From an uncultured Myxococcales bacterium (GTDB taxonomy: Bacteria; Myxococcota_A; Polyangia; Palsa-1104; JAEUJZ01), in contig CAYWPR010000010.1 in NCBI GenBank assembly GCA_964460115.1, positions 14,730 through 78,729 on the forward strand: 64,000 nt of DNA, given 5' to 3'. Position 1 is the stretch's first letter. Each line of letters starts with the position of its first letter. The notes beneath the pieces were generated by a model that saw only the letters and a list, made by a program, of their open reading frames with translations, made no database searches and was not told the origin of the DNA. Below are positions 5,973 to 10,861 of this stretch, piece by piece. Both the position numbers and the translations under genes were made by a program.

Positions 5973-6068
5973 TTAGCTCCTCCTTCGATCCAAGATGTCA
6001 GACCATCTCTAGCTACATGATATCGCGGCAGCGGCGACTTCGGCGAGGCATGGCGATATACTCAGGCC

Positions 6069-6737
6069 ATGTCGGTTCAAACTGTCGCAGCTGGCCTTCT
6101 TGCTTTTGCAGAGTTGGCCAGCATCATAGGTATTGTCGGCTGCGCCAGCCCGCGGTTGCGGCTTGACGCAAATGTCGAGCCCCCTGGCACGTCCTACAAG
6201 GCGGCTTATGCACGCTGGACCCGCGAGGCTACCGCCGTGGCGTGGCAGGATTTAGACACCACGCTTTTGGTCAGCGCAACGCTGCGCTCGCGCGCTTTTC
6301 AGCGCGCCTACATTGACCGCTATCTGCATACCTACAGCATCAAAGATCCCGCTGAGCGGTCGCGCATCGAAACGGTTGAGATGCAGCTTGCAGAGTCCGG
6401 CCTGAATTTCTGGGTGCGTACTGCGACGCATGACGCCAAATGGAACGATCTGACGCCGCAACGCGGACGCTGGCGCATCGCGCTTTTGGTGGAGCCCAAG
6501 GACACAGTCGAAGAAGTGCTGCCCTTAGAGGTCACCGCGGTGGGGCGTGGCGAAGGCTTGGAAACGGCGCTTTTTGACGAAACCCCTGATGTCTATAAGC
6601 GCATTTGGCGCTTGCGCTTTCCGCCGCTGCCGGCGTCGGCCACGGGGGTCGGCTGCACGACGGGCAAACCCTGCAAACTGATCCTGCGCTTTGTCGGTCC
6701 GGTCGGGAAGACGGACCTAGTCTGGAATCTAGAGTGA
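6069..6737 (+). CDS. Hypothetical lipoprotein
   Basis: A signal peptide with a lipobox-like IVGC is present. No recognisable domain was found. The gene is divergent from the tail-tube-like gene. Confidence 0.5.
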   Translation: MSVQTVAAGLLAFAELASIIGIVGCASPRLRLDANVEPPGTSYKAAYARWTREATAVAWQDLDTTLLVSATLRSRAFQRAYIDRYLHTYSIKDPAERSRIETVEMQLAESGLNFWVRTATHDAKWNDLTPQRGRWRIALLVEPKDTVEEVLPLEVTAVGRGEGLETALFDETPDVYKRIWRLRFPPLPASATGVGCTTGKPCKLILRFVGPVGKTDLVWNLE

Positions 6738-6761
6738 TATGGTGCGAACGGTTGATTCGAA

Positions 6762-8870: not shown

Positions 8871-8872
8871 GG

Positions 8873-10861
8873 ATGGAGCGTCTGCCTAATACCCTTGGCA
8901 ACGTCGTCGAAATACAAGTTGTGTCGGGGGCCCGCTGTGGCGAACAGTTATGGTTCTTTGACGCTGAGCGCATTCGTCTGGGCCGAAACCCGGCCAATGA
9001 AGTGGTGCTGCCCGACAGCGGAGTGTCGCGCTTTCATGCCGAGCTACGTGCTTCCGGAGACGGCGATGGCTATGAACTAGGCGACAGCGGCAGCACGGCC
9101 GGAACATTTCTGGACCAAGCCGGCGTGGCCGAGCGTGTTCCTTTAGAGTCTTCGAAGCTGTTGTCGCCCGGAGTTTATGACGTACTTTTGGGCCAGGGCG
9201 GGCCCCATTGCCGCATTGGTGTAGGCATCAGCGTCCCCTTTGGGCGCTATCGATTGATCGCGCGACTGGGCGGCGGCGGAATGGCCGAAGTTTATTTGGC
9301 CCGTCAAACCGGCCTTGGCGGCTTCAATCGGCCTGTGGCGCTAAAACTGATACAGCCCGAGCTTTTTGACGTGGTCGATGCCAGCGCCATGTTTTTGGAC
9401 GAAGCGCGCATCGCCGCCGAGATCAACCATCACAACGTCGTAAAAATTTACGATGTCGGCGAGCACGACGGCGTCCTGTTTCTAACGATGGAGCACTTGC
9501 GCGGAATCACCCTGTCGCATTTGCGTAACAAGCTACGGCACGTCGGCAAGAAGATGCCGCCGGATTTGGTCGCAGCGCTGCTAAGCCAAGCTTGTGCCGG
9601 ACTTCATGCCACGCATAGCCTGCGCGACCTTGGCGGCCGGCTATTGCACGTCGTGCATCGCGATGTGTCGCCTTCTAATTTGATGTGCACCTCCGAAGGG
9701 CTGCTCAAAGTCATCGATTTCGGAGTGGCGCGCGCCGATACGCGGCTTGTGCAAAAGGATGAAGGTTTGCAAGGCAAGCCGGCGTATATGTCTCCGGAGC
9801 AGATTCAAGGGCGGTCGCTTGATGCGCGTTCCGATGTGTTTGCACTGGGCGTCGTACTGTATGAGCTGTGCTGCGATCGGCCGCTTTTTCAGCGCGATGA
9901 CCTGATGGCGACTTTTTATGCAGTCGTACGCGAAGATGTACCGCCGCTGCGCAGCTTTTGTCCGCAGGCCTCGGCGCAGTTAGAGGCGGCGGTGCATAAA
10001 GCCCTGGCCAAAGATCCGGCGCAGCGCTTTCAAAGTGCCGCGGAATTGGCGCTTGAGCTCGACAAAACCGTGCAAGAGGCAGGCGGGCGCTTTGCCAATA
10101 TCTCGGCGATTGCGCGTTTTTTGCAGGAACTAGACATCCATTTAAATGCCATCGTTCCGGTCTTGCTGAGCCGCGTTCCCAAACCGCTGTTGTCGCGTCG
10201 CGAGCCTGCCCGTCGTAACAGTTCCGTTTCCAAGCCGCTAGCGCGTCCGGCAGAAGTGGCGCCGCCGATCTCTACTGCGCAAGGGCCCGATTCGACCCTT
10301 GGTTTCGTCCCGGTGGCACCGACCGCGCTTTTGAGCGTGACGGTCCCGCTTCCCGGTCCCGAGCACACAGAGCGCCTACGCGGCCCCGCCGGGCATCATC
10401 TATCGATTTGCACGCTGTCTTTTCGCGCTCCGCGGCAACTTACCGCAATGCCTTTGCCGCTGCTTTTGGGCGCTGACCAGCCTTGGCTGCCGGCGCCCAT
10501 CGCGCTGACTGCGCTCGGCACCACATTGATGGTCGAGCTAGAGGAACATCCAGGCGGTCGCGATCGTCCAAGTCTTTATCACAATGCTTTTCTTCCGAAT
10601 ACTCGCTGCGAAAGCTTCACGCTGCAGCCGAGTACTAAGGCCGGCCATTTTGACGTAGGGCATCGCCGAACGACGGTACAAAGGATCGATTATGCAAGCA
10701 CGATTGCCGACTCGGCAGGCAATGGTAGGCTGCGACTGGTTCTGGCCGATTTGCGTGTGGAACTTGTCGGCAGCGTTTCGCTTTTGCGCCTGTGCGCGCT
10801 GCATACAAGCGATGCCGCGCACAAGATGACCTGCTTGATTTGTGTTTTGATTGAGCCCTAA
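8873..10861 (+). CDS. FHA-domain Ser/Thr protein kinase, apparently active (Lys, HRD and DFG present)
   Basis: An N-terminal FHA (LGRNPANEVVLPDSGVSRFHAEL) is followed by a kinase domain with GGGGMAEVYLA, VALKLI, HRDVSPSNLM, DFGVAR and MSPEQ. The ATG at 8873 is 3 nt after the activator stop. Confidence 0.85.
   Translation: MERLPNTLGNVVEIQVVSGARCGEQLWFFDAERIRLGRNPANEVVLPDSGVSRFHAELRASGDGDGYELGDSGSTAGTFLDQAGVAERVPLESSKLLSPGVYDVLLGQGGPHCRIGVGISVPFGRYRLIARLGGGGMAEVYLARQTGLGGFNRPVALKLIQPELFDVVDASAMFLDEARIAAEINHHNVVKIYDVGEHDGVLFLTMEHLRGITLSHLRNKLRHVGKKMPPDLVAALLSQACAGLHATHSLRDLGGRLLHVVHRDVSPSNLMCTSEGLLKVIDFGVARADTRLVQKDEGLQGKPAYMSPEQIQGRSLDARSDVFALGVVLYELCCDRPLFQRDDLMATFYAVVREDVPPLRSFCPQASAQLEAAVHKALAKDPAQRFQSAAELALELDKTVQEAGGRFANISAIARFLQELDIHLNAIVPVLLSRVPKPLLSRREPARRNSSVSKPLARPAEVAPPISTAQGPDSTLGFVPVAPTALLSVTVPLPGPEHTERLRGPAGHHLSICTLSFRAPRQLTAMPLPLLLGADQPWLPAPIALTALGTTLMVELEEHPGGRDRPSLYHNAFLPNTRCESFTLQPSTKAGHFDVGHRRTTVQRIDYASTIADSAGNGRLRLVLADLRVELVGSVSLLRLCALHTSDAAHKMTCLICVLIEP

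Follow-up and report, generated by a model that had tools for sequence, protein, structure and literature searches.

An orphan, tail-bearing contractile-injection tube gene divergent from a lipoprotein, FHA–GAF sigma-54 activator and FHA kinase operon in an uncultured Polyangia bacterium

Four genes lie around a short divergent spacer in a 64,000-nucleotide (nt) stretch of DNA, hereafter the window, from an uncultured Myxococcales bacterium of the class Polyangia (GenBank assembly GCA_964460115.1, contig CAYWPR010000010.1, positions 14,730 to 78,729). On the minus strand sits a gene for a paralogue of the tube protein of contractile injection systems (CISs; 4770..5972). Divergent from it, on the plus strand, follow the genes of a lipoprotein (6069..6737), of a sigma-54 enhancer-binding protein with FHA and GAF domains (6762..8870), and of an FHA-containing Ser/Thr kinase (8873..10861). 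The gene map was drawn from open reading frames (ORFs) and their translations, and domains were called by Pfam and NCBIfam scans. A preliminary description of this DNA had named the same four genes and domains, and the Pfam matches confirm them with small corrections to the coordinates.

The tube gene encodes 400 residues, of which the first 150 (5523..5972) form a gp19-like tube domain. PF06841 (Phage_T4_gp19) matches residues 14–145 with an E-value of 1.7e-31 and 109 bits against a cutoff of 28.2, and TIGR02241 is passed with 103.7 bits against 62.4. A profile of the family finds the solved CIS tubes of Anabaena tCIS, AlgoCIS, Afp1/5 and Pvc1/5 at E-values from 8e-20 to 5e-8, the nearest solved relatives being tCIS All3324 (7b5h) and AlgoCIS (7adz). 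A strong ribosome-binding site, GGAGGAG, lies upstream of the gene. Compared with its syntenic orthologues, the tube domain is 52–68% identical, the figure of 52% being a partial 101-aa match at a contig end; the full-length matches are 66–68% identical and retain the invariant residues of the family. The closest non-syntenic homologues, from metagenome-assembled genomes (MAGs) of uncultured Polyangia or Myxococcales, are ~145–150 aa long and 59–64% identical.

The remaining ~250 residues (4770..5522) make up a low-complexity tail, evident from the translation and its short tandem repeats, which is rich in Pro, Ser and Thr and in Lys and Asp; tblastn with the tail as query returned no match. 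The tails of relatives are low-complexity and hypervariable as well (L087 4717–5202; L095 7404–9422; L119 3–458; numbers with the prefix L denote loci in other genomes and metagenomes). Total tube lengths reach 311 aa in L087, 822 aa in L095 and L116 and more than 302 aa in L119, and the tails cannot be aligned with one another, that of L095 carrying ~34-aa repeats rich in Thr, Gly and Asp. Across the tube orthologues, tail length ranges from 160 to ~670 aa. Wherever a contig includes the C-terminus of a syntenic orthologue, the tail is long and has a high content of Ser and Thr or of Pro and Lys. Such a tail could be taken for a non-coding read-through artefact, and the tube-like ORF for a decaying pseudogene or duplication remnant, since the tail is of low complexity, several other frames are open across it, and the tails are unconserved between lineages. 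We find this reading scarcely credible. The tube domain has kept its identity and invariant residues across the lineages with full-length matches, the ribosome-binding site is conserved, the ORF reaches just short of the next gene in every lineage, and a non-coding stretch of ~750 nt would be exceptional in a window whose intergenic share is only ~6%. For the same reasons, translation of the tail is very likely.

Past the end of the tube gene and before the next one, a weak terminator-like hairpin with a T-rich run (4682..4695, minus strand) hints that the tube gene may be monocistronic; it is no more than a hint, because hairpin-type sites are no more numerous in the region than in shuffled sequence. 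Directly downstream lies a tight operon (1402–4639, minus strand) of an LpxL-like acyltransferase gene and two KAS-type genes, one of them without its full C-terminal domain. This operon is kept beside the tube gene in L087, L095 and L116.

When the 54 large ORFs of the 64 kb were scanned with Pfam, the gp19-like tube was the sole gene of a type VI secretion system (T6SS) or CIS to emerge; genes for a sheath, baseplate, spike, PAAR protein or CIS AAA+ protein were all absent. The tube gene is an orphan, tail-bearing paralogue of the CIS tube protein, and any machine that it serves lies outside the window. In passing both PF06841 and TIGR02241 it resembles the tubes of CISs and extracellular CISs (eCISs; Afp1/Pvc1, Afp5/Pvc5, AlgoCIS, All3324). 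It departs from them in having no sheath, baseplate or spike gene nearby, in its disordered tail, and in scoring below the equivalog cutoffs of CIS5_fam (83 bits against 260) and CIS1_fam (24.8 against 220).

Elsewhere in the Polyangia, where the CIS context of tube homologues was probed with the genes of an Acidobacteriaceae eCIS locus (L052), such copies occur in two settings. Those of L012, L016, L018 and L021–L036 except L026 and L028 are embedded in full CIS clusters with sheath and baseplate and are 48–63% identical to the window tube. Those of L001, L002, L003, L011, L015 and L019 are orphans in a housekeeping context, with 5–10 kb of flank on each side and no CIS gene. Both kinds coexist in several MAGs, with several copies per MAG. 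The close tube homologues, whether orphan or in true CIS clusters, come without the lipoprotein/activator/kinase module. In a neighbour-joining tree, which carries no support values, the window tube and its syntenic orthologues group together, nested among orphan and CIS-embedded Polyangia copies.

The orphan or “evolved” Hcp proteins of T6SSs are Hcp proteins with C-terminal extension domains. The window tube is like them a tube paralogue with a C-terminal extension, away from a main cluster and with several paralogues per genome. It differs from them in that its extension is of low complexity with no recognisable toxin domain, that it belongs to a different branch of the tube superfamily, and that its link to a main cluster is only putative. 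Another tube homologue, P0035 (267 aa, JGI), 56% identical to the window domain, bears a C-terminal extension with a HEATH (HExxH) motif; it may be a tube–metalloprotease fusion, analogous to evolved Hcp proteins.

On the other side of the spacer, the first gene of the operon encodes a predicted lipoprotein of 222 residues with the lipobox IVGC, set in A-S-I-I-G-I-V-G-C-A, the Cys of which is conserved in all full-length homologues. Neither Pfam nor NCBIfam holds a match to it, and its own family is small (15 proteins found, 21 metagenome loci). Its AlphaFold model (pLDDT 78.5) has no neighbour in the PDB at E <=0.001; the best, 3fjv, a protein of unknown function, aligns with TM-scores of 0.44–0.49. 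The second gene encodes an enhancer-binding protein of 702 residues in which an FHA domain (50–123, E 6.7e-8) is followed by a GAF domain (221–359), a sigma-54 AAA+ module (Sigma54_activat, 394–559, E 8e-74) and a helix-turn-helix (HTH) domain (HTH_8, 661–700). GAFTGA and the Walker A and B motifs are present in its translation, and its FHA domain has the GR, SxxH and N residues.

The third gene encodes a putatively cytoplasmic kinase of 662 residues, in which only an FHA domain (34–93) and a Pkinase domain (126–387) match Pfam, leaving a C-terminal region of ~270 aa; the Pfam scan found no vWA domain. The Gly-loop, VALK, HRD, DFG and SPE motifs are all present. The catalytic loop reads HRDVSPSN as against HRDxKxxN of canonical Hanks kinases, and this Ser variant is a trait of the subfamily, because ~90 of the 120 closest kinase homologues carry it. 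In the kinase FHA domain, Ala replaces the usual Asn of the STNG motif. The activator ends with TAG at 8868–8870 and the kinase ATG starts 2 nt later, not 3 nt as first described; in the window, L116, L119 and L120 the kinase start lies 2–20 nt past the activator stop. Taken together, the domains describe a putative sigma-54 activator that reads phospho-threonine and whose translation is coupled to that of an FHA kinase.

Enhancer-binding proteins of the FHA type, with input from Ser/Thr kinases, reportedly form an established class in myxobacteria, and the window module, judged by its domains, fits this class. The shared features are an N-terminal FHA domain, a GAFTGA-bearing sigma-54 AAA+ module and an HTH of the Fis type; the genome is likewise of Myxococcota type and abounds in Hanks kinases, one of which is encoded immediately next to the activator. 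Unlike other members, the window activator has an extra GAF domain between FHA and AAA+, is obligately paired with an upstream lipoprotein in an apparently leaderless operon, and has a partner kinase with an FHA domain of its own.

The two sides are separated by 96 bp (5973..6068), the length given in the preliminary description. The part nearer the lipoprotein is a 49-bp control element (6020..6068) with the core GCGACTTCGGCGAG between two outward-facing −10-like hexamers. Towards the lipoprotein, the −10 hexamer TATACT (6057..6062, plus strand) ends 6 nt before the ATG and a candidate −35, GCGACT, stands at 6034–6039. Towards the tube, TATCAT (6017..6022, minus strand) is a candidate −10 with a poor −35. 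A TATACT, TATAAT or TAGAAT hexamer precedes the lipoprotein ATG by 5–6 nt in all 13 of the 13 lineages examined, and no Shine–Dalgarno sequence is found before that ATG. From this we infer that the operon starts without a leader, from a sigma-70-type promoter. A strict sigma-70 consensus scan finds no promoter, so this call draws on the conservation of the −10 hexamer across lineages. On the tube side, TATGAT, TATCAT or TACGAT occurs at one position in five lineages. Public gene calls miss the leaderless start: the NCBI product has 166 aa (P0257), and the JGI call for L120 begins at an upstream in-frame ATG.

The 49-bp element is 92–98% identical among the window, L087 and L095, whereas the adjacent coding DNA of these three lineages is 64–76% identical and the tube-proximal spacer ~57–60%. 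It is recognisable also in L119 and L120, and its invariant core falls where both −35 regions would lie. Because the element is better conserved than coding DNA and spans the likely −35 of both promoters, it suggests shared control of the divergent units, though of a kind that does not point to sigma-54. It is not a known RNA, as a search of 4500–6400 against Rfam at E-values up to 1 gave no family. A palindrome, ATATCGC-N27-GCGATAT, was considered as an RNA stem and rejected, since L087 breaks the pairing without a compensating change.

Between the element and the tube ATG, the window has 47 nt, with only a weak AGATG/CATCT stem. In four relatives GC-rich hairpins lie between the element and the ribosome-binding site of the tube gene (L087 5653–5746; L095 9873–9951; L119 909–1000; L120 306–440), and the tube-proximal region of L120 holds further GC-rich repeats. 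In L119 a run of T on the strand of the tube gene comes after the hairpin, and the hairpin sequences are unconserved among relatives. These tube-proximal hairpins may be stabilisers of the 5′ untranslated region or attenuators.

The conservation of the 49-bp element makes the strongest case that the divergent units share some control. It also speaks for an indirect or post-translational coupling of the two units, which we consider unlikely overall. Such a coupling comes in two versions. In the first, the HTH of the activator would bind the 49-bp element and modulate both divergent sigma-70-type promoters, in the manner of NtrC-type proteins at some of their own promoters. In the second, the kinase would phosphorylate the Ser/Thr-rich tube tail, on which FHA domains would dock, so that assembly or delivery of the tube would come under phospho-threonine control by a logic like that of PpkA and Fha1. 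In favour of coupling are the gap in identity between element and coding DNA, the outward-facing hexamers conserved in five lineages, and the long tails, with their abundance of Ser and Thr or of Pro and Lys, of every syntenic tube complete at its C-terminus. Against it stand the tails themselves, which share across lineages no conserved motif fit to be a target of the kinase or of FHA domains, and the Ala that replaces the usual Asn in the FHA domain of the kinase. What synteny adds on both sides is taken up below.

A more direct link had been proposed at the outset. The preliminary description saw in the locus the logic of T6SS regulation and suggested a phospho-threonine/sigma-54 circuit for expression or assembly. 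In the model that follows from it, the kinase would activate the FHA activator, and this in turn would fire a sigma-54 promoter in front of the divergent tube gene, much as hcp operons are driven by VasH. We searched for such promoters by scoring GG-N10-GC sites out of 12 against TGGCACG-N4-TTGCW. The 96-bp spacer contains no GG-N10-GC site of at least 8/12 on either strand, in keeping with the earlier failure to see a TGGCAC-N5-TTGC promoter there, and no intergenic region of the window has a strong sigma-54 site. Within 250 nt upstream of the tube ATG, no site rises above background in the window, L087, L095, L119 or L120; the best scores 9/12, which ~6% of random 260-nt windows equal or exceed. 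This site (6167–6182, minus strand), the only one of its score, was rejected as a tube promoter, as it overlaps the conserved lipoprotein codons D-A-N-V-E-P, its −12 element varies in relatives and its score is that of background. Around the lipoprotein–activator pair no consistent site was found over 11 loci, so the targets of the activator are probably distant, and a scan of 16 Polyangia CIS loci for sigma-54 sites gave nothing systematic.

It is therefore unlikely that the activator next door controls the tube directly through sigma-54, and the VasH-like model as a whole is very improbable. The tube-proximal part of the spacer has a mere 47 nt in the window, and in three of the four relatives (L087, L095, L119) it is filled by GC-rich hairpins, not promoter motifs; moreover, the activator is conserved without the tube in more distant relatives. 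Speaking for the model are an activator intact in its GAFTGA, Walker motifs and HTH, its place beside the tube in five lineages, and the established control of hcp clusters, both main and auxiliary, by VasH and RpoN in T6SSs (PMC10482370), to which may be added the two further cases that follow.

The first is L038 (Polyangia MAG SMAG_U9996), where an ECF sigma factor, an FHA-type sigma-54 activator and then a tube paralogue follow one another. The activator has no GAF domain and is not orthologous to that of the window; the tube paralogue (10007–10471) is 50% identical to the window tube. A promoter, TGGCGCGCGGGTTGCT, scoring 11/12 at 9979–9994, ends 12 nt before the tube ATG. It is the sole site of at least 10/12 in the locus, and 11/12 was reached once in 5000 random windows. 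Upstream on the minus strand lies a gene for a PAAR-domain protein; with it the locus forms a satellite module (4377–10471), and the contig ends 1.2 kb past the module. Judged by this order and promoter score, the L038 tube is very likely under sigma-54 control. The second case is that of eCIS clusters from the Acidobacteriota, Verrucomicrobiota and Binatia and from related MAGs. These clusters begin with a sigma-54 activator, either of the receiver type or bare, that lies ~4.7–6 kb upstream of the tube (L052, L065, L067, L068, L073, L074, L076, L086). Sites resembling TGGYATYGCRAATGCW occur after the head activator, ~200–280 nt before the first structural gene, and in L086 a perfect TGGCACGCCGCTTGCA stands at 4995, upstream of the first structural gene. 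A search of one literature library found no paper tying eCISs to sigma-54. By these predicted sites, sigma-54 control of gp19-type systems is real in other loci, and the window is without such a promoter.

The broader likeness to T6SS regulation by PpkA, PppA and Fha1 together with VasH or Sfa2 (PMC10482370) fares no better. A Hanks kinase, FHA domains and a sigma-54 activator do lie beside a tube-family gene, and the activator shares with VasH-type regulators an intact AAA+ module with GAFTGA and an HTH. The defining features are missing nonetheless: the window has no machine genes, no vWA or apparent transmembrane kinase and, by Pfam scans, no PP2C phosphatase domain anywhere. Of the two FHA domains, the activator carries one and the kinase the other, and there is no stand-alone FHA scaffold such as Fha1; nor does a −24/−12 promoter lie before the tube, which unlike Hcp belongs to the gp19/eCIS family.

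The history of the arrangement was traced by scanning metagenomes for the lipoprotein family and by looking up contigs, which gave ~30 loci, each searched by tblastn with every window protein. The lipoprotein–activator pair is widely kept. In all those loci among L087–L103, L116, L119 and L120 whose contig does not stop at the lipoprotein, the very next gene is an orthologue of the FHA–GAF activator; the lipoproteins are 37–60% identical, and the activators 48–71% identical in the N-terminal half and 79–93% in the AAA+ half. Only the closest clade (the window, L087/88, L095/L116/L117, L119 and L120) has the tube divergent from the lipoprotein, and the kinase comes after the activator in the window and, on contigs long enough to show it, in L116/L117, L119 and L120. 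In the more distant relatives within L089–L103 (L089–L094 and L096–L103) the pair has other neighbours and no tube, and no kinase follows the activator in L091, L097–L099, L101 and L103. In L104–L106, the most distant branch, the genes that come after the lipoprotein encode a radical-SAM protein and an unrelated kinase. A kinase homologue, P0151 (L118), 66% identical over the FHA and kinase domains, has no activator, lipoprotein or tube nearby. Most likely, then, the lipoprotein–activator pair is the conserved core, and the kinase is an addition made within this clade.

L116 is collinear with the window over more than 20 kb on both sides of the locus, through an ABC transporter, the KAS/LpxL-like genes, citrate synthase, mfd, GCS2 and the second activator. 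Conservation of the layout thus reflects inheritance of a block from one ancestor and not repeated selection, and the four-gene layout, as traced in these contigs, is of single origin. The synteny on which the preliminary description had let its case depend does exist, in the window and four further lineages, but within one clade and from one origin, so that it lends weak support. Of the phospho-threonine/sigma-54 circuit there remain the module itself and its layout in that clade; the sigma-54 promoter was not found, and the pair occurs without tube and kinase in every more distant relative. The coupled versions introduced above gain from the presence of the four genes together in five lineages and from the absence of both tube and kinase wherever the pair occurs outside the clade, and they lose by the single origin of the arrangement and by block collinearity, which explains the co-retention.

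Adjacency alone carries little weight, because signalling genes are dense here. Among the 48 genes of the window are two sigma-54 activators (6762 and 19842) and three to four kinase-like genes (8873, 31909, 38703 and, weakly, 12355), as anticipated by the caveat, raised at the outset, that FHA, Ser/Thr kinase and sigma-54 genes abound in such genomes. The adjacency of tube and operon is statistically unremarkable.

On this evidence we lean slightly towards two separately promoted, independent units that lie back to back, juxtaposed by descent, their adjacency having arisen once in one clade. The first would be the leaderless operon of lipoprotein, FHA–GAF–sigma-54 activator and FHA-Ser/Thr kinase, most likely working like other myxobacterial FHA-type enhancer-binding proteins. 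In a presumed phospho-relay, the kinase would phosphorylate itself or a partner on threonine, the FHA domain of the activator would read the phospho-threonine, the GAF domain would add ligand input, and the AAA+ ring would open sigma-54 promoters elsewhere in the genome, outside the window. The second would be an orphan paralogue of the Polyangia contractile-injection tube, ending in a disordered tail that evolves fast and having a promoter of a type other than sigma-54; its probable function is in a CIS whose cluster lies at another place in the genome, or else it may have been co-opted for another structural role.

Several points weigh against independence of the two units. The 49-bp element suggests that they share control. 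Tube and kinase are confined to one and the same clade. Circuits of an FHA-type activator and a tube do exist in Polyangia, since L038 has activator, 11/12 promoter and tube. The promoters were assigned from sequence, and the strict sigma-70 scan came up empty. Finally, the 64-kb window is the whole extent of the source genome that was examined, and the scope of what is said of a CIS cluster, of rpoN and of sigma-54 targets ends there.

The surroundings are those of an ordinary Myxococcota-type chromosome, with citrate synthase, Mfd, TrpRS, PurA, PurD, ECH and other housekeeping genes identified by Pfam; the second sigma-54 activator gene lies at 19842–21353. Downstream of the operon, 12355–14433 (plus strand) encodes a 692-aa protein with a degenerate kinase-like N-terminus, in which HGD stands for HRD and the NCBIfam match is weak, a long Pro-rich linker and a C-terminal hydrophobic segment. 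Its product is probably a pseudokinase, and L116 has a 634-aa gene at the matching position. At 50335–51027 (plus strand) lies a member of the ERG2/sigma-1-receptor family (PF04622, E 3e-54), a eukaryote-type sterol isomerase family found here in a myxobacterial-type genome. A small methyltransferase is encoded at 42164–42844 (minus strand), its top Pfam match being DOT1, the histone methylation protein (E 1.4e-6).

Orphan paralogues of the CIS tube are thus dispersed over the genomes of Polyangia, and some have long disordered tails. It is a long shot, but conceivable, that the tail-bearing orphans are a new kind of “evolved” CIS tube subunit, whose Ser/Thr-rich, fast-evolving tails would be phosphorylated by the FHA kinase and read by FHA domains, with the expression of tube and operon tied through the 49-bp region. 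If true, a contractile system of the gp19 type would have a phospho-threonine checkpoint, a counterpart to that of PpkA and Fha1 in T6SSs but assembled independently. Coupling, if real, would be the first phospho-threonine or enhancer-binding-protein checkpoint on a gp19-type (non-T6SS) contractile component, and would give a handle on the regulation of the poorly studied CIS machines of Polyangia. The locus also defines a conserved, apparently leaderless operon of lipoprotein and FHA–GAF activator, and its 49-bp control element is well delimited and directly testable.

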